Positions 8,129 through 52,967 of a stretch of DNA of 64,000 nt are shown here, in pieces. The DNA lies in the NCBI GenBank assembly GCA_000165345.1, contig CM000431.1, positions 544,001 through 608,000 of the forward strand. The letters run 5' to 3'. Within the stretch, counting starts at the first letter, position 1, and each line of letters starts with the position of its first letter. Both the position numbers and the translations under genes were made by a program. Below the pieces are notes generated by a model. The model saw only the letters and a program-made list of their open reading frames with translations, was not told where the DNA came from and ran no database searches.

Positions 8129-8333
8129 ATTGCTATAAAGTCACTTCTTTCTTTTACTGTTAGTTTGAGTATAATTAATTACCAAGACCAAGTGGCTAGG
8201 TTTCTTCTACGTGATAATTCCGACTGGCTTTTGCCTCCTCCAAATTGCTTATTGACAAGAAAAAAAAACTTATACCGCAAGACAAGTTGATCTGTCTCCG
8301 TCTCTATTATTTAATATTGACGTCTCGAATAGT

Positions 8334-25406: not shown

Positions 25407-28400
25407 ATGCTTAACAAAGAGGAGTACGGGCCATGCATAAATAGTACATTTAGTGAGTCGAATAGTAAGATGAATCCAAAAAATAATGAGTCAAATTTTC
25501 AAGATCAAGTCAGCTTAAAGGATTTATTTTCCCTATATGGAAAAAATCCATTTTTTTATACTCTCAAAGAAAATGCCAGAATAAATGGATTTAGGGAATG
25601 TTATTCTTGGATAGGGTCAAATGGGGACATAAAGAAGAAGTTTACTTATAGAGAATTCTTTGAAAAAGTAGTTGAATTAAGTTGGTATTTGAGCAAAAAA
25701 CTAGGAATCAAGGCAGGAGACAAAGTTATTTTGTGTTATACACCAGGATATGATTTTGTAATTGCATTTACTACATGTTTAGTTAGTGGGATTGTTGCTG
25801 TCCCTGTATATCCTCCTGATCCAATGAGAGGACAAAGCGAAATACAGAGGTTTTGTGATATAAAGCAAGCTTCAGAAACTAATATTTCCCTCACTTGTAC
25901 ATCTTATATGAGAAGTATTGAGATAGCTAAAACAATGTCTACCGACAAAAGATTTAAATCAATAAGGTTTGAAGCAACAGATAATTTGAAAATACGGAAG
26001 GAAGAATATATTAACGAAGTACAAAAGGCGATTAATGATATTATTCTTAATGATTCTAATCATTTTGATTTTTTGGGTTTTGATTTTAATATTAATACGG
26101 TAGCATTTCTGCAATTTACTTCAGGATCAACTTCCCAACCAAAAGGGGTGATGGTTACTCATGGAAATCTACTTTATAATATTCATATTTGCATCAGTAG
26201 CTACTCGTTTCCTTCAGTTTTAGAAGAACATTATAAAAATGAGCTTGACAGTATTCCTGCAGGAATTACAGTTTTGAAAAAAAACGAGCTTACAGAAGAT
26301 GAATTATCTTTCATTCATAACGAATTTGGAGAAGAAAAAAATATTATGTCATTAAATGATATTAAGTATGATAAATTGTATTTATATATGAGTATCATTA
26401 ATAAAGTCTTATATAAGAATACAATGAGTTCAGCTTCTGTTTTTAGCTGGCTTCCTGTTTATCATGATATGGGTTTAATTGGTTTTTTTTGTACTCCTTT
26501 GTTTTTTGGGTGTAACATTTTCCAAATGTCCCCAATTGACTTCATAAAAAAACCCTACCTTTGGATGCAATGCATGGATAAATACAATTGTTCTGTAAGC
26601 GGTGCTCCAAACTTTGCTTTTGAAGTCGTCGTAAGAAAAACTCCAAAGGAAATCTTAAATCAACTTAATTTAAAACATGTTTTTGCAATTTTATCTGGAG
26701 CCGAACCAATTAGAAAAACAACAATTGACAGATTTACTGAGGCCTTTAAGTCAGTGGGAATAAAGCATAATGTTATCAAGCCGGCATATGGTCTTGCAGA
26801 GCATACCTTGATTGTAGCAGGGAGCAATAGTTTTCAGCAAGAGGTAAACCATATCACTGTTAACACCAAGAAATTAAGAGAGAAGAATATTGTTGAAATA
26901 AAGGAGGCTAAAGAGAAAAGTTCTACAGAAACAACATCATTTGTTTCGAGTGGTATTGTTTACAAAGGAATTGATTTGAGAATTGTTAATCCGGAGAGTT
27001 TAAAAGAAGTAACTCCCGGAAATGTTGGCGAAATTTGGATTTCAAGTGAGTCTGTAACGCTTGGTTATTATAATAACAAGGAAGAGACAGAAAAAACGTT
27101 CAATGCAAATTTCACTATGCTAGATGGAAAAACATCGAAAAGTACTTACATGAGAACTGGGGATAGTGGTTTCATAATAAATGATATGCTTTATATTTCA
27201 GGGAGAATCAAGGATATGATAATCATTAGAGGTAGAAACTTTTATCCACAAGATATTGAGGAAGTTATTGATGGGGTCAGTGGAGTTAGACAAGGGTCAG
27301 TTGCTGTATTTTCTGTAACCCAGGCAGATGGTGAAGAGGCTATTGGTGTTGCTGTTGAAATCAGAATGGAAACGAGTATACTTGGAAGGGTAAGAAGGTT
27401 TTTTGAAAAACCTGCTTATGATAATATTGTTAGAGCAATATCGAAGGCAGTATTTATTGGGCACGGGCTACCAGTACATTACATTTGGCTTCTCTCCCCT
27501 AGAACAATATTAAAAACAAGCAGTGGAAAAATTAGAAGATCTCAAACAAGAGATGCAATTTTTTCCAAAAAACTTGTTCCATTATTCGAGTGGGTTTGTG
27601 AACAGTCTCCAATGTCTGATATTTTGGTTGAGCGATCATCACAGTTTATTAGTCCAACATCCATGATTATTTCAAAGTCTGGAGTTCAAAATAAATCAAA
27701 ATTTTATGAGAAAACACATTCAGGCCAACAAAAAATATCTGAGCAAGCTAATGATGAAAAAAATGAGTTTGATATTGATCAAGTCAAGATAAAGATCATT
27801 GAATTTGCTGCGCAAGTATTGGGAATAACACAGAAGGACCTGGATCTTAATGCGCCTCTACATGAATATGGAATAGATAGTTTAGGATCAATTCGCCTAT
27901 CTGAAATGATGAATGAAGAGTTTGGTGTAGAGCTAGACTCTACACTTTTATTCAACTATCCAACTGTAATAGAGATTGTGGACTTTGTTGCAGCACAGAT
28001 CTCTGGAAAAGAACTTCATAGAAAGAACTTGCTTAATCGCTCAGGGATTGACAGCTACTCAGATATTGTAGTTGTTGGAATGTCTTGTTCATTTCCTGGT
28101 GGGTCTTCAACTCCAGGAGAATTTTGGAGTTTGCTACAGTCAGGAGTTGATGCAATCGGAGAAATTCCAAAAAGTAGATGGAACATTGATGAGTATTATT
28201 CAACTGATTTAGATTTAGAGAACAAAATGTATACTAAAGAAGGAGGTTTTATAGAAAACATTGATCAATTTGGAGCATCATTCTTTAAAATATCCCATGC
28301 AGAAGCAAGATCTATGGACCCACAACAAAGAATATTTCTCGAAAAATCTTTTGAAGCGTTAAAGGACGTAGGATATACCATTGATACTTTAAAAAAACGA

Positions 28401-31400
28401 AATATTTCTGTGTTTGCAGGTTGTTGCAGCAATGATTGGACCCATGTTTGCAAATCAGAAGCAAATTCAAATATTGGTACATATGCTGCAACAAGTCATG
28501 CTGCATCAATAATAGCGAATAGGGTCTCATATACTCTAGGCCTGACAGGGTCTTCTGTGACAGTTGACTCTGCATGCAGTGCATCGATAGTTGCTCTTCA
28601 TGTTTCTTTACAAGAAATCTCAACTGGACAATGTGAAGCAGCTGTTGTTGGTGGTATTAATTTAATGCTTTCTCCGCAGATCACTGTTGCTCTTTGCAAA
28701 GCTAGGATGCTTTCTATGGATTGTCGATGTAAATCTTTTGATGCAGCAGCAAATGGATATGTAAGAGGAGAAGGTGTTGGAGTCCTTGTTTTAAAAACAA
28801 TGGAGAACGCAAATAATGGTGAAAAAATCTATTCAGTTATTAAAGGATCATCGGTAAACCACAATGGAAGGTCTGCAAGCTTAACAGCCCCAAATGGAAT
28901 CTCTCAGCAAAATGTAATAAATTCAGCTCTGGAATATGCAGGAATAAGACCAAATGATATTGGTTATATTGAAGCACATGGTACAGGTACATCTCTTGGA
29001 GACCCAATAGAAGTATCCGCATTAAAAAGCATATTTTCGAGAACAAGAGATTCAGGAAAACCTTTAATTATTGGTGCTGTTAAAACGAATATTGGCCACC
29101 TAGAAGGAGCTGCAGGTATGGCTGGTATTTTCAAAGTTATTCTTTCTTTAATAAATGATACTGTTCCTCCAAATCTCCACTTTAAAAACATTAACCCTCA
29201 CATCAACCTAAAAGGTTTTCCCGTAATCATTCCAACATCTAACATTGCACTGCAAACATATGACGGTTCAAAAACTTGTGCAGGAGTTTCTGCATTTGGA
29301 TTTGGTGGTACAAATGCACATGCAATTTTTGAAAAACCGAATCTAAGTATTGATTTGCCGATTAAAACGGTAAAAATAGAGACGAATAAGGCAAGAAATA
29401 ACCCTGTTCTATTTGTATTTGGTTTTCAAGGATTCCAGCATGTAAACATGGGTAAGTATTACTTTGAGAGAGAAATAGTCTACAGAGAATGGTTCTTGAA
29501 GTGTTGTAAAATAATTGATCCATTCTTAAAAATATCACTAAAATCATTAGTTTATCCTGAAACCAAGAATATGGAAAAATTAAGAGAGCTAAATAAGATC
29601 CTTGAGCAGGAAGAATATGCTCAATGTGCGCTTTTTGCAGTTCAATACTCTCTTGCAAAGCTCTTAGAGTCTAAAGGAATATATCCAGGAGCAGTAATTG
29701 GTCTTTCAGATGGAGAGTTAGTTGCATCTGTTTACTGCGGTTCTATCAACCTAGAGGATGGGCTAAAATTGTGTATGCTAAGGGCATCTTTATTGAGTGA
29801 GTTTTCAGCTGGTGAGGGGAAAATGGCACTGTTCAATGTGTCTAAAGAGGATGCCGAAATGGCTTTAGCAGACGTTGGACCACAACATAATAATAGGGTT
29901 TCAATTTTTGCATCTATTAGTTCAAATCAAGTCTTGCTTTCAGGCGATGAAGAAAAGCTTGAAACCGTAGTTTTTATATTGAAAGAATACTACCCTAGGG
30001 CCAATGCACATTCTATAGATGCAAAGTTCCTAAGAACAAAATATTCATTTGGTACCAACGGAATGAATGGCCTAATAGAGCCAATTTCTAACTTGATGGA
30101 AAATATTGCATTGGAAACTCCGATGATTCCAATGATTAGTGGAACTTCTGGTTATTTTGTTTATGAAGAATTAACAAGTCCAAAGTATTGGGGATGGCAG
30201 TTAAACAATAAATTATCTATCTCAAAGGCACTAAATACTGCTATTTTAAATGGAGCATCTACCATATTAGACTTAATGCCCATTTCCAGATCAGAATTTG
30301 AAATTTCAGAAATTTTTAATTTTGAAAATATTGATAAAGACACTATTTACTATTCACTTTTCGAAGATACAAACTTGGAAAGTTATGAACCGAATAAATT
30401 CAATAAAATGATCAAGGTGGTATCTGAAATTTTGCTTAAAAATCCATATAATGTTGAAGATGCATGTGACCAAATAATAAATAGCAATGGATCAACATAT
30501 AGCCGTGAGTCATTCCCTTGGAACTCGTTTAAACATTCAATACTTGGTGAGCAGAAATCAATTGACAGGTCAGTAAAAATTGTCTCTACCCTTAATAATA
30601 AGTCAATAAAACTATTCTCTGATCATAAAGTTTATGAAACAATTGTGATTCCGGGAGCCGGACTCATTGATTTGGCAGCAGCATCCATTATAACTGTTTC
30701 AATGGATGATGATAGTATTTTGCAAGGTTCTAATGCATTATTTGGAGAAAGTATAGCTGTAAAGCTAAACAATGTACTTTTTGAAAAACCAGTGGTGGTG
30801 AATAGAACTAGTTTATTTTCTTCTGAATGTACAGAAGTAATTAATCAACTGAAATCATACAACAATCTCGCCAACGATCAAAAAACAAATTTAATTTGTA
30901 ATATTGAGTCCGACGGAAGTATTTCTATACAGTATTGTAACATTGACAATCAAGAAGATTTTGATTATGAGGCTGATAATTCAATGATTGATTGCTTTTC
31001 TTGTAAGGCAAAAATTTCCGAGGGGGAATTTGTTCTAAGCGAAGATCTTGCCCAATTAAAGAACAATACAAATATAAAGGAAGATCCGAAAATTATGTAT
31101 GAAGAATATGAAGAAATTGGTTTGAAATATGGAAAAAAATTCAGAGTTGTGAAAGAAATTTATAGAAATGAGACATGTTCTATTGCTTTAGGAAAAATCT
31201 ATTTACCAGAAACGTGTAAATTTGGAACATTTGAATCTGGATTTTATTTCCATCCTGCAATTTTGGATGGTGCTCTCCATGTTGCAGGCTCACTATTAAA
31301 ATATAAAGATTCTTTTAAGAGTAAGCAGGCAATGGTACCAGTTAGTATTGAAGAAATTGAAATTAAATATGTCAACGCAAATCAAATGATTTGGGCAGCT

Positions 31401-43400: not shown

Positions 43401-46400
43401 GCAGTAGGAGGCATTCAATTAGTACAAAGCTCAAATGAAAATATTTCAAATAATGAATTGACATGGATTCCAACAATTGATAATTCAAAATCAAATACAA
43501 TTGATTTCAATGATGCGCTAAAAGCTGCTCGGGAATATATAAAATATATTTCAGAAAGCGTTTGTGTTCATAAATGGAACCACTCTAGGTTCCATTGGGC
43601 AGATTTGACATCTGTCCACCCCTTATTGGGAAAGTTTTATTCATCAATTTCAGATGAAAATTATCTTGCTTATTCCACTGATATGCTAAAATCTAAAGTA
43701 TTTAAAAACATTGTAGAAGATCATGTTATTTTTGATACAAATATTATTCCCGCAGCAGCATTGATTGAGGCATCTGCATGCGCAGCATTTAAATTACAAA
43801 GGTCTGAAAAGTTCCCATCTAAATACGTCGAAATGGATTCAATGGATATTGAAAAGCCATTAGTATCAAATCAAGATGAAACTACATCTGAAATGGAAGT
43901 CTTTGTTGCAAAAAGTGGAGCAATTCAAATAAGGAAAAAATGCATTTCCGAAGCATTTGAATATGAAGAAGAATTTTCTGGACCACAAATAATTGCCAAT
44001 GATACAGTATTTAGTAATAGTAGAATTTACCATCATGCATCTATTTCAAACTCTAGAATACTTAGCAAGGATGAAGTAGATAAACAATGTTTCCCAAATT
44101 TAGTGGATTATTTAGAAAAGTATTCATCAAAAGATACAATGGAAGTCCCCATTGACAATATTTACAAAATGATGAATGAAATTGGTCTACAATATCAAAA
44201 AAATTATCAATGCCTTAAAACTGTAAAAGTAAAAATTGATAATAGCAACGATGAAAAAAAAATAAAGAGTTCAGGAAGCAATCAGATAAATGAGGTATTC
44301 TGCTATGTTAAGAGGCCAATAAGTGATTTTGACCTAACTGAGCTTAGGATTCACCCTGGAATGCTTGATTCAGTATTTCAAGCATCCTCAGTTTTGTTTG
44401 CCTCTGATGAGTTATTAGAGGGCAAAGATACGACAAAAAATAAGAGAGGACATGTTGCAATGGCTCCAATTGGATTCACTAAGTGTTTTTATGGAAGAAT
44501 ACAACATAATTCTGATGTTTGGGGTCTAGTGAAATTAAATCGATTTGAAAAAAAAGGAAATATAGCATTTATTGATGTAACTTTGTGGGATAGCAAAACA
44601 AATATTTTGGCAGCGCATTTCCAAGATTTAATTTTAAAAGGATTTTCGAACGCAGCATCGTTACTGTCCCAAGAAGTCAGAATTCCAAACCAGTTTTTGT
44701 GGAGAACTTATAATAAAAAGATAGTAGATAGAACTAATTATATTGAAAATAGCAGTACATTTGAACAAGAAAATAAAGAAGATCAAGATAAAGAGTTCAA
44801 CAGTGAAGACTCCGATCATGATAACCAAATCCAAAAGATTCTTATCTTTGGAATACCAACTGTAATTAAGGAATTGATTTGTAGTAAAATGGACAATAAA
44901 TACAAAAAGATTTCAACCACATTTATTTGTTTAGAAGAAGATCTAACGATTGACCTGATTGATCAGAAAATACAAGAAGAAAACTGGTCTGCTATGTTTT
45001 ATTTAGGTGGTTTAATGGATAATCTCTCAAGTAAGCAAGTTATGGGCGATATTTTAAAAATATCGCAGGTAATTTCAACTATTTCTGTATCTATTACAAC
45101 CGCACCATTTGTTTGTTTAACTTCATTTAATGATTGCAAAGAAGATGGGAACATTCCTAGACATTCAGGAATTAAAGGTTTTGTGAAAACAGCTAGAGTT
45201 GAACTTGAAAATGTCATAGGAAAATCAATAAACATTTCTCATATTGAGTGCAATTCGAGTTTGGTAAACGATCCAGAAACTCTTATGAGGACAATAAGTT
45301 ACATAGCCTCAATATATGAAGGAAAGATTGAAGAGGAAATTACTTTGGAAAGAGATTTAACTATATCTGAAAGTGGAATTTATGCCCCCAGATTAGAAAG
45401 TATTAATTTCCCTGTTTTTGGTGCAATTAAATTAACAATGTCATCTAGGGGAGCAATTGGAAACCTTAAATTCAAGCCACAACCACAATCTGAAAGAGTA
45501 AATCCACCTGCAAATACTGTTGAAATTAGAGTAAGGTCAATCGGACTTAACTTTAGAGACGTATTAAATGTTATGGGATTGTATCCCGGTGACCCTGGAC
45601 CTCCCGGCGGTGATTGTTCTGGTACTGTTGTCGCTGTTGGTGAAGGCGTTAAGCATATTAAAGTTGGTGATAATGTATTTGGAATTGCTCCTGGATGCTT
45701 AAAAACTTATGTTATCACTGATTCAAATTTGTTATGCAAAATTCCAAAAGGATTTACCTTCGAACAAGCTGCTGCGTTACCAGTTGTTGCAACTACAGTT
45801 GAATATTCTCTTAGAGATATTGCGAATATTAAAAAAGGAGATATTGTTCTAGTTCATGCAGTTACTGGTGGCGTAGGATTAATGGTTGTTCAATATTGCA
45901 AAGCAATTGGTGCTAAAGTATACGGCACAGCTGGAAGCGAATCTAAAGTTGAATATGCACTTTCTAATGGTGTTGAGAGGGTAAGCAGCTCAAGAAATGC
46001 TGATAAATTTAAAGAGGACATGAAAGATTTAGAGGGAAAAGTTGATATTGTAATCAATTCATTGATCGAAGACTTTATTCCAAATTCTTTGAATTTATTG
46101 AAAAAAGGTGGTTGTTTTGTTGAATTAGGAAAAAGAGGAATATGGACAGAAGAAGAGATGAAAGAAAAGAGACCTGATATTAAGTATAAATGTGTTGCTG
46201 TTGATGTAATGATGGAGGAAGATCCTTCTTGGTTTGGAGGAATGCTAACAAGAATAAAAAATTTGGTAGAAGAAGGAATAATCGAGTCATTACCATTGAA
46301 GGTGTATGATATGAGAGGTTCAGATGAGAATGGAATAGATGCATTCAGATATATGCAAAGAGCGCAACATATAGGAAAGGTTATCATCAAAATTCCAACT

Positions 46401-49400
46401 CCTTTCAAATATTTAGAATTGGATACGGAAAATCATAAGTTAAACAACGTTGGTTCTGAAAAAGAAGATAGACACAACAATGAATATGGCATTCATGTGA
46501 TTACTGGAGGATTAGGAGGAATTGGAAGGATTATTATCAAGTGGATGTTAGAAGAAGGAGTTAGAAAGATTGCAATTTTATCAAGAAGTGCTAATAATGA
46601 TTCTTTAAGAGATATCCCAGAAATAAAGGATTATTTGAATACAGATATTATTCAAATAGAATGCATAAAATGTGATGTTTCGATATTGTCACAGGTAGAG
46701 AGTGCATTTAGGGAGATTTTAGTTAAATTTGGAGAAACGAACCAAATACATGGAATATTCCATGCTGCAGGTATTCTGATGGATGGAGCAATTGCTTCTC
46801 AAACAATGGAAATGATGGAGTCAGTATATGCACCCAAGGTATATGGAGCATGGAATCTACATGAGTGTTGTGAAAAGTTTGAATTGAATAAAAATTTGAA
46901 GCACTTCGTGATGTTTTCTTCAGTTGCATCATTACTGGGTAATTTTGGTCAAACAAACTACTCTGCAGCGAATTCTTGTTTAGATTCATTGGTTGAATAT
47001 AGAAGAAATAAAGGAATGTGCGGAACTAGTATACAATGGGGTCCCTGGATTGAACAAGGAATGGCAGCAAATCTTAAACAACATTTAGAGAAGGTTGGAA
47101 TGTATGGCATATCCAATGAATTGGGTATTCGTGTTTTGAACGACATTCTATGCTTTGTATCAAAAAGTAGCTCTGTTATTGGTTGTCAGTCACTGAAATG
47201 GGATACGTTTATGCGCCGTTACAATACGATACCAACATTTTTAAGTGAAGTCGATTACAGTTCTCAGGGTAGATCACAAGGTCGTGTTGACATAAGCAAG
47301 CTGTCTGACGAGGAATTGGTTGTTGTCATTGCTCAAGTTGCTCAACAGTGTGCTAGTTCTCCGACATTACCAAGCCCAGATACTGTTTTGTTAGATTTAG
47401 GATTGGATTCATTGGGAGCTGTTGAATTCAGGAATTCAGTACTTGAAATGACAGGAGTTAAATTGCCGCAGACACTTGTTTTTGAAAACCCTACAATATA
47501 TGCAATTTCTATGTATGTAAGGGATCAAAATTCAGGAAACTCTACAAAATCAGATTCTAAAAAACATTCCCAGACTTCAAACGAACAAGCAAAGATGACA
47601 ATTGAGCAGTGGCTTCTATCTTCACTCAAACAGTCAGAAAGGTATATTTTATATGCTGAAGCTTTTGAAAAAAAATACCAAACAATCAGTAATTTAATTA
47701 CTGAGACTGATATTATTAGTGCATTAGAAGAGTTGGGAGTTGAAAATAATCAGGATTATGATCTATTATATGTTTCTTGGAATGAATTAATTTCTTCTGA
47801 AGAGGAAAATAGTAAGAAGCAAAATGATAGCAATAGCAAAAAACTTGAACAGGAGTTAATATTCGATCCTATTGCGGATGTAGAAGAGATCAAAAATTCC
47901 ATGAAATTAGATTTGGATGGGATATCAACAACAACTGACCCATCAGAGTTCAAAACCGCACTTTTGACAGGTGTAACAGGATTTGTTGGTAGAATATTGC
48001 TCGTGAAACTAATTGAAGAGTTTAAGAATATGCAGATTGTTTGTCTTGTAAGAGCAAGCAGCTCTGAAAAAGGCTTAGAAAGAATAATTAATGTTTGTGA
48101 AGAGGCAGAAGTGTGGAATCCAACCTATGCTTCTAGGATTATTGTCGAATGTGGAAACTTCGAAGAGGAGTATTTAGGACTTTCAGAAGAGAGATATTAT
48201 GAATTATGTAAAGAAATCGACGTTGTTTATCATATTGGAGGTGATGTTAATCTATTAAGTAATTACAAGAGATTAAGAAAAACAAACACTCTTTCACTTG
48301 TTGGTATAATAAATTTTTGTACAACTATCAAGCTTAAGCACTTGCATTTCTCTTCTACACTTGGACAGTTTCCAGCATTTTTTGCGGTATTTACCAGGGA
48401 GTTTGAAAATGCAGTTGTTAAGGAAACAGAAGGGCCATCTACGAGAGAAATGAGCAGATTGTTTCCTCCTACAAGACAAGGGTATCCTTGGAGTAAGTGG
48501 GCAGCTGAACAAATATTAGAAACTGCTCATCAACAAGGACTTCCACTTTCAATTTACAGACTGCCAAATACATATATTGCATCAGATACAGGTTATACAA
48601 ACAAAACTGATTATGCAACAGCTTTATTGATCGCTTCAATTTTGGAGGGTATGTTCCCTATTGGTTCATCAACTGCGCCATTGACACCTGTTAATACAAT
48701 ATGTGAAATAATAATATCTGCATCTAAAAAGAAAGAAAGGAAGCATTGGAGATATAACTTATTAGACACAAGAATTTTAGGAAAAAAACATGTTGAAGCT
48801 TGGGCATCTCAATTAGGGCTAGGAAATTATAAAGGCGTTGCTATTGATGAATTCTTCAGTGCAATTAAAAGTAGAGGGCCAGAAAGCCCAATTTTCAAAT
48901 TTGTACCATTAATGCAATACTGGAGGCACTATTGGTTTGATAATACTGAAAGAACTCAACCTTTTCCAGTAGATACATCGAATGTTTCTGAAGATATGCC
49001 TGAAATTTCATGGCCACCGTTGGAGATTACTTTTCAAAACTCATTTTTATACTGCGCAAAAAGAGGTTATTTCCCATCAAACTCTTCTTCAATTTCCTTC
49101 ACTCCAATTAAATGTTACAGCGATGCTTTAAATGAAATTAAAGCAGAATTAAGTTTAAGAAATGTTAATTTCAACCAGAATAAGTATGATTTTATTTGCA
49201 GAAAAATGCAAAAAAATGCAGACTCGATTTACGATTCATTAAAAAAAGTTTCGCTCAATTTCTGTGCTAAATATTCTTACTACATACTTCTGAAGCAATC
49301 TATAGTAAATCAATATATTGTTCAAGAGTCCCTCAATGATTCAATTTTAGAAAAGTTTAAAATGATGGATTGCTACTTTATTACGGGAACATCGTTTGAG

Positions 49401-50138
49401 GAAATATTGGAGTTGAGAAGAGTAATCAGAAAACTACTAAATAATTATAATGAATTAAAATTTGTTGACATTGCTTGTCCTTATCTTCCAACGAAGAATT
49501 CAAGAAGACTTATTTTAGAACAACTAAAAATCGCAACATCTATTTTACCATTAAAAAGATTCGAAGCTGTGGATTTGGATGAAATATTGACAGACGACTC
49601 CATTTTGTTAGAAATGTTTATGTTTGCTCCGTTTACCTTACCATTGATATATGGAAAAGAGTATTTTGAAGAATACAAAAATAAAATTACAGGTTGTTCA
49701 GAGGTAATGGAAGCATATTCATCGTTTAAAAATTACATTATTCAAACTCTAATAAAGAATAATTACAATACTGAATATCCGATTATTTTTAGTTCTCCTT
49801 TCCATTTACCTTTTGTAAAAGAAATTTTACAGATTTTTGAGAACTCTAAAATTATTGTTGTTGATAATAAACCAGATAATTCGACCATTCAAGGGAAGTT
49901 GTCAATGGTAAAATCTTTAAAATCAAAATATACGAATCTAGATGTTAGCGAAGAAGAAAATTCAGAGGTATATTTGCTAGACATCCTTGAGGAAATGAAG
50001 CATAGATTTGTTATCAATGAACCCAGCATTGATAAAAATAGGCTAATTTATCTCAAAGATTTTGGAGAGATACACAATGAAAAGATAAGTGTACAGTTAC
50101 AAGATTTCTGTTCCACGAGTATAGACAGTAGATTTTAA
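25407..50138 (+). CDS. FAS1: Giant modular type I fatty-acid/polyketide synthase (8243 aa, intronless): acyl-CoA ligase-ACP loader, three KS-AT-DH-ER-KR-ACP modules, C-terminal thioester reductase
   Basis: It is one continuous ORF. The first ATG is at 25407; the track start at 25383 is a TTG. All the domain motifs listed in the domain features below are present. The size and domain order match my recollection of the published Cryptosporidium parvum CpFAS1. Confidence 0.95.
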   Translation: MLNKEEYGPCINSTFSESNSKMNPKNNESNFQDQVSLKDLFSLYGKNPFFYTLKENARINGFRECYSWIGSNGDIKKKFTYREFFEKVVELSWYLSKKLGIKAGDKVILCYTPGYDFVIAFTTCLVSGIVAVPVYPPDPMRGQSEIQRFCDIKQASETNISLTCTSYMRSIEIAKTMSTDKRFKSIRFEATDNLKIRKEEYINEVQKAINDIILNDSNHFDFLGFDFNINTVAFLQFTSGSTSQPKGVMVTHGNLLYNIHICISSYSFPSVLEEHYKNELDSIPAGITVLKKNELTEDELSFIHNEFGEEKNIMSLNDIKYDKLYLYMSIINKVLYKNTMSSASVFSWLPVYHDMGLIGFFCTPLFFGCNIFQMSPIDFIKKPYLWMQCMDKYNCSVSGAPNFAFEVVVRKTPKEILNQLNLKHVFAILSGAEPIRKTTIDRFTEAFKSVGIKHNVIKPAYGLAEHTLIVAGSNSFQQEVNHITVNTKKLREKNIVEIKEAKEKSSTETTSFVSSGIVYKGIDLRIVNPESLKEVTPGNVGEIWISSESVTLGYYNNKEETEKTFNANFTMLDGKTSKSTYMRTGDSGFIINDMLYISGRIKDMIIIRGRNFYPQDIEEVIDGVSGVRQGSVAVFSVTQADGEEAIGVAVEIRMETSILGRVRRFFEKPAYDNIVRAISKAVFIGHGLPVHYIWLLSPRTILKTSSGKIRRSQTRDAIFSKKLVPLFEWVCEQSPMSDILVERSSQFISPTSMIISKSGVQNKSKFYEKTHSGQQKISEQANDEKNEFDIDQVKIKIIEFAAQVLGITQKDLDLNAPLHEYGIDSLGSIRLSEMMNEEFGVELDSTLLFNYPTVIEIVDFVAAQISGKELHRKNLLNRSGIDSYSDIVVVGMSCSFPGGSSTPGEFWSLLQSGVDAIGEIPKSRWNIDEYYSTDLDLENKMYTKEGGFIENIDQFGASFFKISHAEARSMDPQQRIFLEKSFEALKDVGYTIDTLKKRNISVFAGCCSNDWTHVCKSEANSNIGTYAATSHAASIIANRVSYTLGLTGSSVTVDSACSASIVALHVSLQEISTGQCEAAVVGGINLMLSPQITVALCKARMLSMDCRCKSFDAAANGYVRGEGVGVLVLKTMENANNGEKIYSVIKGSSVNHNGRSASLTAPNGISQQNVINSALEYAGIRPNDIGYIEAHGTGTSLGDPIEVSALKSIFSRTRDSGKPLIIGAVKTNIGHLEGAAGMAGIFKVILSLINDTVPPNLHFKNINPHINLKGFPVIIPTSNIALQTYDGSKTCAGVSAFGFGGTNAHAIFEKPNLSIDLPIKTVKIETNKARNNPVLFVFGFQGFQHVNMGKYYFEREIVYREWFLKCCKIIDPFLKISLKSLVYPETKNMEKLRELNKILEQEEYAQCALFAVQYSLAKLLESKGIYPGAVIGLSDGELVASVYCGSINLEDGLKLCMLRASLLSEFSAGEGKMALFNVSKEDAEMALADVGPQHNNRVSIFASISSNQVLLSGDEEKLETVVFILKEYYPRANAHSIDAKFLRTKYSFGTNGMNGLIEPISNLMENIALETPMIPMISGTSGYFVYEELTSPKYWGWQLNNKLSISKALNTAILNGASTILDLMPISRSEFEISEIFNFENIDKDTIYYSLFEDTNLESYEPNKFNKMIKVVSEILLKNPYNVEDACDQIINSNGSTYSRESFPWNSFKHSILGEQKSIDRSVKIVSTLNNKSIKLFSDHKVYETIVIPGAGLIDLAAASIITVSMDDDSILQGSNALFGESIAVKLNNVLFEKPVVVNRTSLFSSECTEVINQLKSYNNLANDQKTNLICNIESDGSISIQYCNIDNQEDFDYEADNSMIDCFSCKAKISEGEFVLSEDLAQLKNNTNIKEDPKIMYEEYEEIGLKYGKKFRVVKEIYRNETCSIALGKIYLPETCKFGTFESGFYFHPAILDGALHVAGSLLKYKDSFKSKQAMVPVSIEEIEIKYVNANQMIWAAAYLSEATQNYSIFDLVLFDSEGSCIGKLEKVSLRQFNSKNISRPTVSHNEILWITEWEKSDVLKFSKNISKESDFDLKIALIHSGICNISEKDDIQLPKANISFVNLDKIKESNIEELERLIDITSLDSLVFLSPVELALSAKIDCEKISIDILEYVMKICKLYLKILKQAKPTKQEQKINIPNFWIITTNSQNLINYNINENICIPNNSGLWGLAKSANLEISSLLTNFSQPIKSVDLEITDFSDNQYLRKTIGSLVRWIGNFEYSSLKEKENLIFKFEREFSITSKNIYVNRINKFHKQIVGPVELFMQNRGSISNLSLIESEPIQLEKLNDYEVVMRVKSIGLNFRDVLNVMGLYPGDPGPPGGDCSGTVVAVGEGVKHIKVGDNVFGIAPGCLKTYVTTDSNLLCKIPKGFTFEQAAALPVVATTVEYSLKDIANIKKGDIVLVHAVTGGVGLMVVQYCKAIGAKVYGTAGSESKVEYALSNGVERVSSSRNADKFKEDMKDLEGKVDIVINSLIEDFIPNSLNLLKKGGCFVELGKRGIWTEEEMKEKRPDIKYKCVAVDVMMEEDPSWFGGMLTRIKNLAEEGIIESLPLKVFDMRGSDENGIDAFRYMQRAQHIGKVIIKIPYLAGIGDNSIPEECLITGGSGSLGLVLTETLLNEGITNISIISRSGIESQSDSIKAKWEKLFKRILNNKNGNSGIRFFNIDIGNKDSVYKLINTEFKNLKHIFHLAGVLSDSNIETQTRESIEEVFKPKAIGAWNLHNICEELGLNKELKTFVMYSSIASGLGNFGQTNYSAANSCLDSLSQYRVSKGLSSRSIQWGAWDEDGMAMNIRQHLGLVGMSPISKTTGQQVIFDLITTQIYEENRKSATIMCLPIKWKTYINTIYSGENIPQFSLVNTNLRTKRQQNTILLKMSKEERETYIEKQIISLSKSILGVEIKSLDQPLQDIGIDSLAALEFRNALSKKFNIKLSATTLFDYPTIRGIKDHISEKLSVKESIYETNKTQISNLILSQDNLSDDNVGVIAGLACRFPGGCNTPDTLWKSLIRGYSINPLSGKMFNSVGGAFCASREIPIQRWNHNLVYNADPDKTGKCYSYKACFIDSIDMFDNSKFGITNIEAKHMDPQQRIVLETCYEALVAAKIKEETLIGFQMGVFIGCCSNDWSFLQSRKGMAPFTGTGAANTTISNRVSYVFGMRGPSMTVDTACASSLTAACIAMDSFRNKECNGAIVGGVNALLSPNLFIAFCKARMLSVDGKCKTFDASADGYVRGEGCGAIVILKQSEQKKQNTPILGRIKGWGCNHVGRSASLTAPNGPAQTCVIKMALNQSKLNSSDIDYIETHGTGTALGDPIELGALKSVFGRNADYKRSTPLVLGALKSNIGHLEGAAGIAGLIKLVLVLKHETAIRIAHLTKINPHLDLEDFNVIIPQKTVSLKCNKNKLIGGVSGFGFGGCNTHVIVESTEKNKSEDIEAADFSKNHILFVFTGQGSQYINMCKGIYETEPIFRENMNLCNEIVSKILNISLLDIIYPIDGNKDAEFKAMNMLNDTRYAQPAIFAVEYSLAQLWISKGIKPDSVLGHSLGEFIAATISQVMTIEDALTLVTHRASIMASTPALDGIMVACRLTESQVVDTIKRFGLEESASLAAVNGQKSVTISGKKESVYKILEYNNVGSRFRRLDVSHAFHSPLVSEASDKFSKLLENIELKKPTVEFISTVTGKKEIESISTAKYWSKHILNTVRLSDAVYHAIESVNSRMTFIEITSKPILSQLLKALIPVNSSHISVKCTCKLVNSEIDFIQPLEEMQEFGSENSSFTNHANNLDDDSWRFKLLKRRQISWSDISHPIIAPLHDFNDIEWVKENISISKSNARELVEKLEFTCMISPELLDLFDNHKVLGQSILPGAAFVDFMATVALNYTKSQFTLGVIGAMPDWIQLKGIFFRNPFIMSSAKQYKYLNTQFDSQDYSDEDNSSRSSDFNIIMSKGNNCQISIESSLKMDEETVVYATCDEVEYVSSIEAQTKSLCIISEWPSSELISNSKKVSQEDIYEKMSIAGLQYGSRFKTLKEMWKVTSNSAVGIIQSELFTKNCAESPDNLAVYESIMNERGFTIHPTLLDGVLHMCASILGDQSDKETFNELHKRATMVPISINKCLITSKIDTSKYIKGEKYWAFVQLKSSDKDSAIVNVALKSMSGVPIAVLLGVSLRSVKNGVISTHTIKHVIPNELLWRIDWDEVIESITNSEIVSLPTKVNCDNTENESYQGINANLVEKRKVLLLTNSCNISKKELYSEYFTADIVCEASKLSLAEIEATIYGRDDQELPPSPSNEAKYDLICLHIPNSDKNKAIVSLLPVLYLCKILRSMFENKERLIPRVRIITENIFNVDGMNLEFRTNSGVAPFIKSARQELELFSDQSVSLGLIDIETAEDLNKAIILSFVKDILCFKKREDITSNGTLTESQRLFLNTEYEPELVLKKKIKGKEDNCEAHYRIITPKLVSLRGEAAIIGSCKLNLSSRGAINNLELLPLSNEERKCPSANTVEIRVRSIGLNFRDVLNVMGLYPGDPGPPGGDCSGTVVAVGEGVKHIKVGDNVFGIAPGCLKTYVTTDSNLLCKIPKGFTFEQAAALPVVATTVEYSLKDIANIKKGDIVLVHAVTGGVGLMVVQYCKAIGAKVYGTAGSESKVEYALSNGVERVSSSRNADKFKEDMKDLEGKVDIVINSLIEDFIPNSLNLLKKGGCFVELGKRGIWTEEEMKEKRPDIKYKCVAVDVMMEEDPSWFGGMLTRIKNLVEEGIIESLPLKVFDMRGSDENGIDAFRYMQRAQHIGKVIIKIPTPFKYLELDTENHKLNNVGSEKEDRHNNEYGIHVITGGLGGIGRIIIKWMLEEGVRKIAILSRSANNDSLRDIPEIKDYLNTDIIQIECIKCDVSILSQVESAFREILVKFGETNQIHGIFHAAGILMDGAIASQTMEMMESVYAPKVYGAWNLHECCEKFDLNKNLKHFVMFSSVASLLGNFGQTNYSAANSCLDSLVEYRRNKGMCGTSIQWGPWIEQGMAMNIKQHLEKVGMHGISNEMGIRVINDVILYQNTDLDKNSLGKYPVITCQSFNWNVYMRQLYYNSKYPSFFKDVVASMSTGEVKNIGMDFRGMSKEEVYSYVKDSVHNIVEQIIGIQSSTLDLDTPFSELGMDSLSAIELRNALISRFGIKISSTALFDYPTLRSIIQHLTDSLYVSETRDAFSDLGMSISEREYSVAIIGVSCRLPGRVKSFNDLYEIVLLKSKDCITEIPLDRWPFDLYYDPDPDNRSKSYVNQGAFITDIDLFDNTFFGLSSTEATNVDPQQKYMLEVAYEAMYNSGITKRSLTSIKKTAKTGDDPVLMGVFIGCCNTDWHFLQAKFGFENFTSYTGSGGASSLVSNRVSYSFGFRGPSQTIDTACSSSLVAMDAALKSLKEGSCHTALVGGVNLMLSPHLFVAFCRARMLSPDCRCKTFDASANGYVRGEGCGAILLTKRSEIGGKKIRPIAYVLGSATNHNGRSASLTAPNGPSQTEVIQNALRNARLTPNDIDYLESHGTGTPLGDPIEFGALKTVFGNKKDIKRSQPLILGALKTNIGHLEGAAGVSGLLKLILVLKNRIAPKILHFQKLNPHIDTENFDVEFPTELKPIISNKSKLVGGVSSFGFGGCNSHVILESASANELNTESSQNKNYPYLIFAYTGQGCQYINMCKQLYDTEEVFRNEMDKCNELLYPILGRSLISTIYCEKTMESEKLINHTSISQPAIFSIEYSLTKLWESKGIVPSAVMGHSLGEFAAAVTSGILCLKDAITLVARRAEIMASLPQNDGIMVACRVSEDQVLDSINKLNLKDSAAVAAINGPKSVTISGSRSSVMQVLNNLGMEDRYKQLDVSHAFHSPLVSSAEEKFEKVIENIQFFEPKLTFFSSVTGNIESKLLIENKYWAQHIIHSVRYYDALETAISTDEENIAIIEIGPKSVLTSMGKQAVGGIQLVQSSNENISNNELTWIPTIDNSKSNTIDFNDALKAAREYIKYISESVCVHKWNHSRFHWADLTSVHPLLGKFYSSISDENYLAYSTDMLKSKVFKNIVEDHVIFDTNIIPAAALIEASACAAFKLQRSEKFPSKYVEMDSMDIEKPLVSNQDETTSEMEVFVAKSGAIQIRKKCISEAFEYEEEFSGPQIIANDTVFSNSRIYHHASISNSRILSKDEVDKQCFPNLVDYLEKYSSKDTMEVPIDNIYKMMNEIGLQYQKNYQCLKTVKVKIDNSNDEKKIKSSGSNQINEVFCYVKRPISDFDLTELRIHPGMLDSVFQASSVLFASDELLEGKDTTKNKRGHVAMAPIGFTKCFYGRIQHNSDVWGLVKLNRFEKKGNIAFIDVTLWDSKTNILAAHFQDLILKGFSNAASLLSQEVRIPNQFLWRTYNKKIVDRTNYIENSSTFEQENKEDQDKEFNSEDSDHDNQIQKILIFGIPTVIKELICSKMDNKYKKISTTFICLEEDLTIDLIDQKIQEENWSAMFYLGGLMDNLSSKQVMGDILKISQVISTISVSITTAPFVCLTSFNDCKEDGNIPRHSGIKGFVKTARVELENVIGKSINISHIECNSSLVNDPETLMRTISYIASIYEGKIEEEITLERDLTISESGIYAPRLESINFPVFGAIKLTMSSRGAIGNLKFKPQPQSERVNPPANTVEIRVRSIGLNFRDVLNVMGLYPGDPGPPGGDCSGTVVAVGEGVKHIKVGDNVFGIAPGCLKTYVITDSNLLCKIPKGFTFEQAAALPVVATTVEYSLRDIANIKKGDIVLVHAVTGGVGLMVVQYCKAIGAKVYGTAGSESKVEYALSNGVERVSSSRNADKFKEDMKDLEGKVDIVINSLIEDFIPNSLNLLKKGGCFVELGKRGIWTEEEMKEKRPDIKYKCVAVDVMMEEDPSWFGGMLTRIKNLVEEGIIESLPLKVYDMRGSDENGIDAFRYMQRAQHIGKVIIKIPTPFKYLELDTENHKLNNVGSEKEDRHNNEYGIHVITGGLGGIGRIIIKWMLEEGVRKIAILSRSANNDSLRDIPEIKDYLNTDIIQIECIKCDVSILSQVESAFREILVKFGETNQIHGIFHAAGILMDGAIASQTMEMMESVYAPKVYGAWNLHECCEKFELNKNLKHFVMFSSVASLLGNFGQTNYSAANSCLDSLVEYRRNKGMCGTSIQWGPWIEQGMAANLKQHLEKVGMYGISNELGIRVLNDILCFVSKSSSVIGCQSLKWDTFMRRYNTIPTFLSEVDYSSQGRSQGRVDISKLSDEELVVVIAQVAQQCASSPTLPSPDTVLLDLGLDSLGAVEFRNSVLEMTGVKLPQTLVFENPTIYAISMYVRDQNSGNSTKSDSKKHSQTSNEQAKMTIEQWLLSSLKQSERYILYAEAFEKKYQTISNLITETDIISALEELGVENNQDYDLLYVSWNELISSEEENSKKQNDSNSKKLEQELIFDPIADVEEIKNSMKLDLDGISTTTDPSEFKTALLTGVTGFVGRILLVKLIEEFKNMQIVCLVRASSSEKGLERIINVCEEAEVWNPTYASRIIVECGNFEEEYLGLSEERYYELCKEIDVVYHIGGDVNLLSNYKRLRKTNTLSLVGIINFCTTIKLKHLHFSSTLGQFPAFFAVFTREFENAVVKETEGPSTREMSRLFPPTRQGYPWSKWAAEQILETAHQQGLPLSIYRLPNTYIASDTGYTNKTDYATALLIASILEGMFPIGSSTAPLTPVNTICEIIISASKKKERKHWRYNLLDTRILGKKHVEAWASQLGLGNYKGVAIDEFFSAIKSRGPESPIFKFVPLMQYWRHYWFDNTERTQPFPVDTSNVSEDMPEISWPPLEITFQNSFLYCAKRGYFPSNSSSISFTPIKCYSDALNEIKAELSLRNVNFNQNKYDFICRKMQKNADSIYDSLKKVSLNFCAKYSYYILLKQSIVNQYIVQESLNDSILEKFKMMDCYFITGTSFEEILELRRVIRKLLNNYNELKFVDIACPYLPTKNSRRLILEQLKIATSILPLKRFEAVDLDEILTDDSILLEMFMFAPFTLPLIYGKEYFEEYKNKITGCSEVMEAYSSFKNYIIQTLIKNNYNTEYPIIFSSPFHLPFVKEILQIFENSKIIVVDNKPDNSTIQGKLSMVKSLKSKYTNLDVSEEENSEVYLLDILEEMKHRFVINEPSIDKNRLIYLKDFGEIHNEKISVQLQDFCSTSIDSRF
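25480..27580 (+). other. FAS1 loading domain: AMP-dependent acyl-CoA ligase/synthetase (AL)
   Basis: The AMP-binding signature LQFTSGSTSQPKGVMVTHGNL is present, followed by YGLAEHT, TGDSGF and the C-terminal SGKIRRS. Confidence 0.8.
27790..28005 (+). other. FAS1 loading ACP (ACP0)
   Basis: The phosphopantetheine attachment motif EYGIDSLGSIRLS is present. Confidence 0.75.
28060..29340 (+). other. FAS1 module 1 ketosynthase (KS1)
   Basis: The motifs DIVVVGMSCSFPGG, the active Cys in DSACSAS, EAHGTGTSLGDPIE and NIGHLEGAAG are present. Confidence 0.8.
29395..30320 (+). other. FAS1 module 1 acyltransferase (AT1), divergent
   Basis: It has the positional AT fold, but reads FVFGFQGFQ in place of GQGSQ and GLSDGE in place of GHSLGE. 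Confidence 0.6.
30560..31510 (+). other. FAS1 module 1 dehydratase (DH1)
   Basis: The motif HKVYETIVIP keeps the H and P of HxxxGxxxxP with G replaced by E. Downstream, FHPAILDGALH has the DH D.xxH/Q region. Confidence 0.55.
32400..33295 (+). other. FAS1 module 1 enoyl reductase (ER1); repeat copy 1
   Basis: It has the MDR-fold signatures GLNFRDVL and VLVHAVTGGVGLMVVQ. Its protein sequence is identical to ER2 and ER3 apart from one A/V difference. Confidence 0.8.
32451..33295 (+). repeat. Intragenic near-identical repeat, copy 1 (ER1; about 845 bp)
   Basis: The block starting gtattaaatgttatgggattgtatcccggtgaccctggacctcc recurs at 39075 and 45561 with only a handful of substitutions. Confidence 0.9.
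33310..34000 (+). other. FAS1 module 1 ketoreductase (KR1)
   Basis: The motifs LITGGSGSLG and NFGQTNYSAANS are present. Confidence 0.7.
34170..34400 (+). other. FAS1 module 1 ACP (ACP1)
   Basis: The motif DIGIDSLAALEFRN is present. Confidence 0.75.
34470..35800 (+). other. FAS1 module 2 ketosynthase (KS2)
   Basis: The motifs VGVIAGLACRFPGG, DTACASS, ETHGTGTALGDPIE and NIGHLEGAAG are present. Confidence 0.8.
35850..36800 (+). other. FAS1 module 2 acyltransferase (AT2)
   Basis: The motifs FVFTGQGSQY, GHSLGEFIAA and VSHAFHSPL are present. Confidence 0.8.
36950..38050 (+). other. FAS1 module 2 dehydratase (DH2)
   Basis: The motif HKVLGQSILPGAAFVD is a canonical HxxxGxxxxP, and HPTLLDGVLH follows. 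Confidence 0.7.
39024..39910 (+). other. FAS1 module 2 enoyl reductase (ER2); repeat copy 2
   Basis: It is the same sequence as ER1. Confidence 0.8.
39024..40580 (+). repeat. Intragenic near-identical repeat, copy 2 (ER2+KR2; about 1.56 kb)
   Basis: It is about 99% identical to 45510..47066 at a constant offset of 6486 bp. Roughly a dozen mismatches are visible. Confidence 0.9.
39990..40640 (+). other. FAS1 module 2 ketoreductase (KR2)
   Basis: The motifs VITGGLGGIGR and NFGQTNYSAANS are present. Confidence 0.75.
40880..41100 (+). other. FAS1 module 2 ACP (ACP2)
   Basis: The motif ELGMDSLSAIELRN is present. Confidence 0.75.
41160..42480 (+). other. FAS1 module 3 ketosynthase (KS3)
   Basis: The motifs VAIIGVSCRLPG, DTACSSS, ESHGTGTPLGDPIE and NIGHLEGAAG are present. 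Confidence 0.8.
42530..43400 (+). other. FAS1 module 3 acyltransferase (AT3)
   Basis: The motifs FAYTGQGCQY, GHSLGEFAAA and VSHAFHSPL are present. Confidence 0.8.
43600..44700 (+). other. FAS1 module 3 dehydratase (DH3)
   Basis: The motif HVIFDTNIIP keeps H and P with G replaced by D. HPGMLDSVFQ follows. Confidence 0.55.
45510..46400 (+). other. FAS1 module 3 enoyl reductase (ER3); repeat copy 3
   Basis: It is the same sequence as ER1 and ER2. Confidence 0.8.
45510..47066 (+). repeat. Intragenic near-identical repeat, copy 3 (ER3+KR3; about 1.56 kb)
   Basis: It is the partner of copy 2, as described there. Confidence 0.9.
46475..47125 (+). other. FAS1 module 3 ketoreductase (KR3)
   Basis: It is nearly identical to KR2. 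Confidence 0.75.
47300..47520 (+). other. FAS1 module 3 ACP (ACP3)
   Basis: The motif DLGLDSLGAVEFRN is present. Confidence 0.75.
47940..49000 (+). other. FAS1 C-terminal NAD(P)H-dependent thioester reductase (R) domain; chain-release terminator
   Basis: The Rossmann motif LLTGVTGFVGRIL and the catalytic Y..K in GYPWSKWAAE are typical of thioester-reductase and NRPS R domains. Confidence 0.75.
49000..50135 (+). other. FAS1 C-terminal extension of unknown function (about 350 aa after the R domain)
   Basis: It shows no recognisable motif and is not low-complexity. Confidence 0.4.
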
Positions 50139-51339: not shown

Positions 51340-51362
51340 TTTATTTATTTACAAATCTTCGA

Positions 51363-51370
51363 TGGCGGGC
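51363..51370. promoter_or_regulatory. TGGCGGGC (E2F-like) 25 bp upstream of the DDI1 ATG (minus strand)
   Basis: The argument is the same as for the 6948 motif. Its closeness to the ATG suggests a very short 5'UTR or a different role. Confidence 0.25.
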
Positions 51371-51553
51371 ATGCAACGCACTCGAGCTGTTATTTGCACA
51401 CTTAAAATCAAAGTGGCAAAGAAAAAAACCTAGTGGGAAGTTAAGTTCAATAAAAAGTAATTGATCAGAGCAAGTATAGCAATCTAAAATAAATACAATT
51501 TTAAGCTATTAAAATATTATGCGTACGATAACCGATCTTTTTCAAAATAAATC

Positions 51554-52309: not shown

Positions 52310-52660
52310 ACTTGACAACACAATTCAAGAGCAAGATCAATTTCTTTTCGTAAATATTATTTCGATAAAGTTACGAGAATTTTATCAGTTTAAAAACTAT
52401 CCCCACAATGATTCAAAGTAACTAAGTAGCGGGTAGTGTTAGCTTGAATATGATTGTTCACTATCCCCTCGTAATTGCTTCTAATTTGGTAACAAGTATG
52501 ACTTATAAATTAACGAAATTGATAAATTAGAATAGTATTACTCATATTTTTGAATAGATTTAATTCAAATCATTTTGATTAATATTTCACAAAACTTTTT
52601 TAGTGATGCGAATTTATAAACTAAAATATTTCGAATTCTAATATTAATAGTTGATTAAAC

Positions 52661-52742
<82 letters not shown>

Positions 52743-52967
52743 CATTTATATTGCATAATTTTGACTGGAATATTACTTCATGTATTTGAGTTCATTAAGG
52801 TTGTGGGGCATGAAAGTTGGCTTGCTTCCCCTCATAATCTGATTAGCATTTATTTAATCAATAATTCAAGAAAAGTTGCTATTAAAGAAATAAATATGTC
52901 AGAGTAAGTCGACTAATAATATCTAAATTAATGATTTCATCTATTTAAACTTTCAATTAGCTGCTTT

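Follow-up and report, generated by a model that had tools for sequence, protein, structure and literature searches.

The locus and its open reading frame

The DNA considered here is a window of 64,000 nucleotides from the forward strand of contig CM000431.1 (assembly GCA_000165345.1, positions 544,001 to 608,000), and the element of concern is a giant gene at window positions 25407..50138 (+) that encodes a modular type I fatty acid synthase (FAS) built like a bacterial assembly-line polyketide synthase (PKS). The gene consists of one intronless open reading frame (ORF) of 24,732 bases, with 8243 codons and a single terminal stop. On the + strand the frame is open from position 25383, a TTG codon; the first in-frame ATG lies at 25407, and 50138 is the last base of the stop codon. 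With stops expected at about 7.3% of random codons at 34% G+C, 8243 stop-free codons would occur by chance with a probability of about 1e-271. The predicted product has a mass of 920.8 kDa. An initial annotation, which a model had made from the letters of the sequence, gave both the coordinates and the codon number from the first ATG exactly.

The identity of the gene follows from comparison with other genome data. Window positions 9197-30171 correspond to CP044420.1:556242-577216, on chromosome 3 of Cryptosporidium parvum IOWA-ATCC, with 0 mismatches in 20,975 bases. In the NCBI annotation of CP044420.1 a gene for an 8243-residue protein starts at the base equivalent to window position 25407, and the end of an 8243-residue gene annotated in another C. 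parvum assembly maps to position 50138. Among the products of neighbouring genes, the RPA1 large subunit, the hypothetical protein Q5CUN3 and a SprT-like protein have exact C. parvum matches, and among named proteins the one nearest to the C-terminal region of the synthase, with 68% identity, is 'type I fatty acid synthase [Cryptosporidium canis]'. The published CpFAS1 is encoded by an intronless ORF of 25 kb, comprises at least 21 domains, arranged as AL-ACP, 3 x (KS-AT-DH-ER-KR-ACP) and R (PMC2995488), and has a mass of 921 kDa (PMC6568194); the gene on chromosome 3 is named cgd3_2180 (PMC3760245, PMC4053351, PMC6877471). The ORF is thus almost certainly CpFAS1, a cytosolic synthase resembling the bacterial assembly-line PKSs and acting as a fatty-acyl elongase rather than as a de novo synthase. 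CpFAS1 (cgd3_2180) was reportedly described by Zhu et al. in 2000, 2004 and 2010.

Since nothing in size, mass, domain order or reductase motifs departs from the published CpFAS1, the locus is already known, as had been supposed in the initial annotation. It is textbook material for Cryptosporidium, a drug-target candidate and a presumed source of oocyst-wall lipids, and its rediscovery adds nothing. Three details go modestly beyond the cited CpFAS1 papers: the loss of active-site residues from the first acyltransferase and the homogenization of reductase segments, both absent from those papers and possible additions to them, and the degenerate state of a sulfotransferase-like tail. All three are testable and possibly of value to specialists.

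Domain organization and active sites

The translation was searched against Pfam in two halves and then in ten overlapping pieces, with the gathering scores as threshold. Twenty-one domains all exceed these scores: an acyl ligase (AL) with an acyl carrier protein (ACP), a trio of modules of ketoacyl synthase (KS), acyltransferase (AT), dehydratase (DH), enoyl reductase (ER), ketoreductase (KR) and ACP, and a terminal reductase (R) of the NAD_binding_4 family. A 22nd domain, which is sulfotransferase-like, follows R. The same scan of the ORF revealed neither a thioesterase nor an MPT domain and, except for the decayed sulfotransferase (ST), neither a methyltransferase nor another tailoring domain. 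The count of 21 catalytic domains and their order had been read correctly before. The claim that there are three complete reducing modules is correct as far as domain content goes; the first acyltransferase, however, lacks the canonical catalytic residues, as discussed below.

The AL domain (25608..27575, residues 68-723; all domains lie on the + strand) is a FAAL-like adenylating acyl-[ACP] ligase that matches PF00501 with 172 bits and carries the PF23024 C-terminal subdomain. Its best NCBIfam models are of fatty acyl-AMP ligase (FAAL) families, namely PRK05850 (357 bits), FadD21 (300 bits) and FadD32 (287 bits), all below the curated cut-offs, and the FadD28 FAAL model is likewise among the best matches. 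Typical models of fatty acyl-CoA ligases (FACL) score at most 139 bits. By these scores the loader appears to resemble a fatty acyl-AMP/ACP ligase more than an acyl-CoA ligase, so that the earlier term acyl-CoA ligase was imprecise. Published assays describe the domain as an acyl-[ACP] ligase with a preference for medium to long chains, which can form acyl-CoA as well in vitro (PMC2995488). The loading carrier ACP0 (27795..27989, residues 797-861, PF00550) has its serine in a GIDSL motif.

The ketoacyl synthases KS1 (28062..29183, residues 886-1259), KS2 (34485..35651, residues 3027-3415) and KS3 (41163..42329, residues 5253-5641) all possess the Cys-His-His triad, with the cysteine in DSACSAS, DTACASS and DTACSSS, respectively, and with HGTGT and NIGH in each. 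AT2 (35862..36734, residues 3486-3776) and AT3 (42540..43412, residues 5712-6002) show GHSLG and the malonyl-type signature HAFH. The dehydratases DH1 (30534..31514, residues 1710-2036), DH2 (37038..38048, residues 3878-4214) and DH3 (43617..44654, residues 6071-6416) retain their catalytic His, Pro and Asp residues. The motif is the canonical HxxxGxxxxP in DH2; its glycine is replaced by Glu in DH1 (HxxxExxxxP, with LDGALH) and by Asp in DH3 (HxxxDxxxxP, with LDSVFQ). HAVTGGVG is found in all three enoyl reductases, ER1 (32400..33278, residues 2332-2624), ER2 (39024-39902, residues 4540-4832) and ER3 (45513-46388, residues 6703-6994), and GGxGxxG together with YSAAN in all three ketoreductases, KR1 (33330..33890, residues 2642-2828), KR2 (40002-40565, residues 4866-5053) and KR3 (46488-47051, residues 7028-7215). 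The DSL serine is present in each of the four carrier proteins, which besides ACP0 are ACP1 (34191..34382, residues 2929-2992), ACP2 (40890..41087, residues 5162-5227) and ACP3 (47337..47510, residues 7311-7368).

The thioester reductase (47961..49106; Pfam residues 7519-7787) consists of a Rossmann part and a subdomain at the C-terminus. It scores 207 bits with PF07993 (cut-off 20) and 189 bits with TIGR01746, slightly below the cut-off of 213, and has the Rossmann and YxxxK motifs. Its motifs TGVTGFVG (residue 7522) and GYPWSKWAAE (residue 7692) agree with those published for the CpFAS1 reductase, Gx1-2GxxG and GYxxSKWxxE (PMC2995488), and its C-terminal subdomain is conserved in the 35 relatives found by an HMMER search.

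The divergent first acyltransferase

AT1 (29412..30266, residues 1336-1620) matches PF00698 with only 79 bits, compared to 166-172 bits for AT2 and AT3. An alignment of the three modules shows GLSDG in AT1 where its siblings have GHSLG, FQGFQ for GQGSQ, and YSFG for HAFH. The serine of GLSDG is S1434 (near window position 29706). In alignments to the structures of CurL, ZmaA and EryAIII, Gly 1549 of the YSFG motif (near 30051) occupies the position of the catalytic histidine. The motif contains no histidine; the nearest one in AT1 is residue 1535, which lies 14 residues upstream and aligns outside the motif. Outside C. parvum, conservation of AT1 was assessed in C. hominis, C. tyzzeri and C. 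meleagridis, and all of these share the state without the histidine. Two independent C. meleagridis assemblies moreover have GLADG, in which the nucleophilic serine is replaced by alanine. A search with AT1 yielded nothing but bacterial PKS fragments of about 30% identity; orthologues in distant Cryptosporidium species were not among the matches.

When C. parvum is compared with C. meleagridis, the ratio of nonsynonymous to synonymous substitution rates (dN/dS) amounts to 0.098 for AT1 and 0.090 for AT3, within a range of 0.015-0.18 across every domain measured. The low value for AT1 indicates purifying selection despite the missing catalytic residues. Judged from its sequence, AT1 probably does not work as a canonical Ser-His transacylase, and we infer that it is kept for structure or for a non-canonical role. 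If AT1 is indeed non-catalytic, ACP1 is probably malonylated by another AT, maybe AT2 or AT3. AT1 may thus be a conserved pseudo-enzyme, with module 1 either relying on AT2 or AT3 or being skipped. This would alter the predicted product length as well as the design of inhibitor and reconstitution experiments.

Near-identical reductase segments

The three ER domains contain repeats of 877 bp (the copy in ER1 spans 32415-33291) that in C. parvum have 97.1-98.9% DNA identity to one another. In the second and third modules the similarity extends into the ketoreductase: the ER2-KR2 block (39017..40642) and the ER3-KR3 block (45503..47128) are both 1626 bp long and 98.6% identical. The copies are not identical, with 10-25 differences each. 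Other parts of the modules are much less alike: KS2 and KS3 have only 71% DNA identity, and pairs of AT and of DH domains from different modules gave no significant DNA alignment.

Comparison with C. meleagridis is informative. Its ER1 and ER3 share 98.97% identity with each other and only 89.9-91.4% with any C. parvum copy. Unique segments next to the repeats have 92.6-94.2% identity between the two species, and the boundaries of repeat identity are sharp. The interspecies synonymous divergence (dS) reaches 0.50 in ER3 and 0.42 in KR3, whereas the flanking domains have about 0.2. Such clustering of paralogues by species is a signature of gene conversion that continues after speciation, and the pattern indicates that intragenic gene conversion is ongoing and maintains the near-identity of the ER and ER-KR segments. 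The reducing domains may thereby be held interchangeable, while the KS, AT and DH domains stay module-specific. A full-text literature search combining gene conversion with the CpFAS1 gene returned nothing specific.

Repeats of this type are known from bacterial assembly-line PKSs as GRINS, which are intra-synthase repeats of about 1 kb with more than 90% identity and with GC and TA skew both above 25% (Nivina et al. 2021, PMC8256042). The segments of CpFAS1 share with GRINS the length of about 1 kb, the identity of more than 90% between modules and a strong GC skew, which at +0.33 to +0.36 is the strongest of the ORF (mean 0.15). The TA skew is small (-0.04 to -0.10), so that the two-skew definition does not apply to CpFAS1, and the host differs in being a eukaryote, with 34% G+C. 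In the homogenization of ER and KR, gene conversion from module to module as known in bacterial PKSs has a clean counterpart in a eukaryote.

The near-identity of these segments also explains why the gene is fragmented in short-read assemblies and in lifted annotations. A Logan contig and a contig of the UKMEL1 assembly both terminate inside ER1. In the annotation of C. meleagridis chromosome 3, FAS1 is broken up at the ER repeats into four proteins of 2550, 2234, 2070 and 1309 residues, which are separate or overlap. The split gene models suggested a frameshift in each C. meleagridis ER copy, which was ruled out where the DNA was read: the 5' third and the 3' third of the gene, including the breakpoints in ER1 and ER3, are open and without stops. 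Together with the end of the UKMEL1 contig in ER1, the open frame implies that the splits examined are artefacts of annotation or assembly and not signs of a pseudogene.

The C-terminal tail

The 22nd domain (49248..50006, residues ~7948-8200) was recognized by profile comparisons as a degenerate sulfotransferase-like domain in which the loops for binding 3'-phosphoadenosine 5'-phosphosulfate (PAPS) are eroded. In the literature the region is part of an 'R domain' of about 780 residues, the second half of which was described as apicomplexan-specific and without motifs (PMC2995488). With the Pfam model Sulfotransfer_3 the C. parvum tail remains below threshold (17.3 bits, E = 0.006, cut-off 27), as does the tail of C. 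canis (17.8 bits). An exhaustive HMMER search with residues 7770-8243 recovered the 35 relatives mentioned above, of which those that can be named are the FAS of C. canis, Gregarina sp. Poly1, the FAS of Gregarina niphandrodes, Rhytidocystis, Colpodella angusta and Chromera velia. Most of the 35 align over the C-terminal subdomain of the reductase only, and the ten that were examined extend 290-480 residues further. Strong Sulfotransfer_3 matches (E 1e-20 to 1e-35) are present in five of six tails scanned, all five from outside Cryptosporidium; the sixth is that of C. canis.

The connection between the Cryptosporidium tail and these domains is visible in several comparisons. The tail is colinear in the alignment with the Sulfotransfer_3 domains of the relatives, and hhalign pairs the C. 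parvum tail with them at 79% probability (E = 1.6e-5). A hidden Markov model of the ST domains of nine relatives gives 32.4 bits for C. parvum, 30.7 for C. meleagridis and 29.3 for C. canis, compared to 8.7 bits for the best of 2000 shuffled sequences. An AlphaFold model of the tail, which is weak (predicted local distance difference test score, pLDDT, 55) and biased by the shallow ST-domain alignment used, finds as its best matches in the PDB the mycobacterial sulfotransferases Stf9 and Stf1 (E ~5e-6), with the ST domains of CurM and of an olefin synthase among the further matches. The PAPS-binding loops show no conservation: C. parvum has TGTS in place of the GLNRSGTT of the relatives, which binds the 5'-phosphosulfate, and DNKP in place of HRDP, which binds the 3'-phosphate, and C. 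canis is the same. The dN/dS of the tail (0.154 for C. parvum versus C. meleagridis) implies that it is still constrained.

The FAS/PKS proteins of gregarines (G. niphandrodes and Gregarina sp. Poly1), Rhytidocystis, Colpodella and C. velia are like CpFAS1 in that the reductase is followed by a C-terminal domain of about 350-450 residues; unlike the Cryptosporidium proteins, the five that were scanned have an intact Sulfotransfer_3 domain with the GLNRSGTT and HRDP motifs. We infer from these alignments that the last ~340 residues of CpFAS1 would represent the decayed ST domain of an ancestral R-ST terminus that is intact in the relatives. A figure legend already draws 'ST' at the end of the parasite synthases (PMC3760245), so the domain itself is known already, and what may be new is its decay in Cryptosporidium. 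The ancestral terminus may have made sulfated fatty alcohols, and Cryptosporidium may keep a PAPS-blind remnant of that terminus under purifying selection. Because a sulfotransferase needs an alcohol as acceptor, an R-ST terminus would argue that the reductase yields an alcohol, which bears on a question left open by the 2010 CpFAS1 paper. It also predicts that alkyl-sulfate lipids occur in gregarines and chromerids.

Proposed mechanism and related systems

The prediction that a pre-made long-chain starter is elongated and released reductively as an aldehyde or alcohol, as put forward in the initial annotation, agrees with published biochemistry (PMC2995488). In such a scheme, the FAAL-like ligase would adenylate a salvaged medium- or long-chain fatty acid and load it onto ACP0, as the published biochemistry suggests. 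The chain would then pass through the three modules in series, each KS catalyzing condensation with malonyl-ACP and KR, DH and ER together achieving full reduction of the beta-carbon; recombinant CpFAS1 module domains were found to be active (PMC2995488). Judging from the architecture and the HAFH motifs of AT2 and AT3, the nominal outcome would be an extension by 3 x C2 to a saturated chain of C22 or longer, and a product of C22 or longer was also predicted in the literature (PMC6568194). Finally, the NAD(P)H-dependent reductase would free very long chains only, either as an aldehyde or, with greater probability, as an alcohol. Published biochemistry again points this way, since the isolated reductase accepted only C20-C26 acyl thioesters, with C26 as the best substrate, rejected C16 and C18, and preferred NADPH (PMC2995488). 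The enzyme would act in female gametes, for which CpFAS1 transcripts are specific (PMC6877471); the mRNA peaks at 48 h, and a role in the synthesis of acid-fast oocyst-wall lipids was hypothesized (PMC3760245).

The identification of this gene as CpFAS1 is based on identical genomic DNA and its annotation. Several points weigh against an elongase acting in this manner. Strict colinearity, with an extension by exactly six carbons, is unsupported, given that AT1 is without the catalytic histidine in four species, and the C26 substrate on which the isolated reductase works best, the longest that was tried, exceeds C16 + 6 (PMC2995488). The reductase product, which could be an aldehyde or an alcohol, has never been detected (PMC2995488). 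The oocyst-wall role is a hypothesis of the cited papers and not a demonstrated function. When the pseudo-enzyme AT1, the gene conversion of ER and KR and the ancestral reductase-sulfotransferase terminus are taken together, a picture emerges in which CpFAS1 would depart from a strictly colinear line of three modules that suffices by itself; we offer this combination tentatively and consider it to have slightly less than an even chance of being correct in full.

Two known systems invite comparison. CpPKS1 (cgd4_2900, 13,411 residues) shares with CpFAS1 the AL-ACP loader, the serial modules, the C-terminal reductase and female-specific expression. It differs in having seven modules with incomplete reducing loops and in its location on chromosome 4, where the gene measures 40 kb, and its R domain falls elsewhere in the published tree (PMC2995488). 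Mycobacteria, too, use FAALs (FadD) to prime fully reducing type I modules (Pks12/Mas) for the synthesis of very long chain wall lipids, and the best structural matches of the CpFAS1 tail, Stf9 and Stf1, are mycobacterial. In mycobacteria, unlike in CpFAS1, ligase, synthase and sulfotransferase are separate proteins, and release occurs by transfer or hydrolysis, with no fused reductase. The mycobacterial analogy has already been made (PMC3760245, PMC6877471).

Alternative interpretations

The architecture by itself is that of an assembly-line PKS, and cgd3_2180 has been labelled a PKS in the literature, with polyhydroxy fatty acyl chains reported among the oocyst-wall lipids (PMC3760245). It may thus be asked if the enzyme is a true PKS ('PKS2' in one paper) that forms a product with oxygen functions or branches instead of a plain saturated fatty alcohol, and the replacement of the motif glycine in DH1 and DH3 (HxxxE/DxxxxP) could be taken in the same sense. 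We consider this unlikely, as all three modules have KR, DH and ER in which catalytic His, Asp and Tyr residues and the NADPH motifs are present, the malonyl-type HAFH of AT2 and AT3 makes methyl branches unexpected, and a methyltransferase or other tailoring domain is lacking save for the decayed ST. The opposite view, that of an iterative de novo synthase like animal or fungal FAS, has in its favour the name FAS and the fact that each module contains the same six domain types. It is hardly compatible with three serial KS-to-ACP modules, with an adenylating loader in place of acetyl/malonyl loading, or with a terminus that is a reductase while thioesterase and MPT are missing, and the published specificities, with a loader that favours medium or long chains and a reductase that refuses C16 and C18 (PMC2995488), make it very improbable. 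The distinction from iterative animal and fungal synthases that was drawn in the initial annotation is thereby upheld, and the elongase function of CpFAS1 remains by far the better description.

The remaining doubts concern the DNA rather than the enzyme. Homogeneity of the ER and ER-KR repeats could be produced during polishing if reads are mapped ambiguously, and the short-read assemblies represented by the Logan and UKMEL1 contigs do break at exactly these repeats; alternatively, one recent internal duplication might account for the similarity. The copies carry their own differences, two chromosome-level C. parvum assemblies arrive at the same length of 8243 residues, and after a single old duplication the orthologues should be the closest pairs, whereas in C. 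meleagridis it is the paralogues that are closer. With an interspecies dS of ER3 and KR3 that is double that of their flanks, an artefact or single duplication seems improbable, somewhat more so than a true PKS, and ongoing conversion is the preferred explanation. The bacterial style of the architecture, the absence of introns and the bacterial affiliation of the AT and R domains described in the literature (PMC2995488, PMC6877471) might finally suggest that the gene was inserted recently from a bacterium or belongs to a contaminating bacterial contig. This is the least credible of the alternatives and can be practically dismissed: the G+C fraction of the ORF (0.339) equals that of its flanks (0.29-0.37), it lies among syntenic eukaryotic genes in four species, and the closest homologues of loader and terminus are from alveolates. 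In a search with the loading unit, the top of the list was alveolate, with Cystoisospora suis (40% identity) and C. velia; the match list contained no Cryptosporidium entry, the protein collection apparently being without these giant proteins. For the terminus, the nearest relatives beyond Cryptosporidium are from gregarines, Rhytidocystis, Colpodella and Chromera. Any bacterial transfer that gave rise to CpFAS1 therefore predates the radiation of apicomplexans and chromerids, and the literature likewise regards a bacterial origin as ancient (PMC2995488, PMC6877471).

Genomic neighbourhood

According to the span of the genes and the length of their products in the NCBI gene tables, about five of 20 annotated neighbours possess a single small intron, and the others have none. 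Those with an intron encode phosphatidylserine (PS) decarboxylase, one proteasome alpha subunit, UMP1, L37ae and a protein of 120 residues. The locus is eukaryotic, as had been stated before, but the description of the surrounding genes as intron-containing applies to a minority of them. Lack of introns is normal in the C. parvum genome, and the gene is unusual in size and architecture. The order PS decarboxylase, Nop, myosin-RCC1, two hypothetical proteins, PTPLA, SprT, proteasome alpha subunit and FAS is common to C. hominis, C. tyzzeri and C. meleagridis, and in C. meleagridis the downstream order of DDI1-like, proteasome and RPA1 genes is kept as well. Scans of the window for tRNA genes, Rfam families and tandem repeats gave nothing relevant to the FAS gene.

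Some neighbouring features may be of interest in their own right. A gene of the PTPLA family (21930-22673, -) is located 2.7 kb upstream of the FAS gene, a linkage that is kept in four species. PTPLA is a 3-hydroxyacyl-CoA dehydratase and forms part of the very-long-chain elongase of the endoplasmic reticulum, so that this is a second gene for very-long-chain fatty acids near FAS. Further upstream, positions 12690-18941 (-) encode a protein of 2083 residues that combines a myosin head and IQ motifs with RCC1/WD40-like repeats, an unconventional architecture for a myosin. Two genes have, unlike their neighbours, no exact protein match, namely that for a DDI1-like aspartyl protease with a UBA domain (50185-51339, -) and that for a hypothetical protein of 443 residues (20188-21519, -); strain differences or differing choices of start codon may be responsible. 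Between the proteasome subunit gene and RPA1 lies an (ATA)25 microsatellite (52666-52741), and the interval 51339-52968, which contains this array, differs in length by 18 bp between two C. parvum assemblies.

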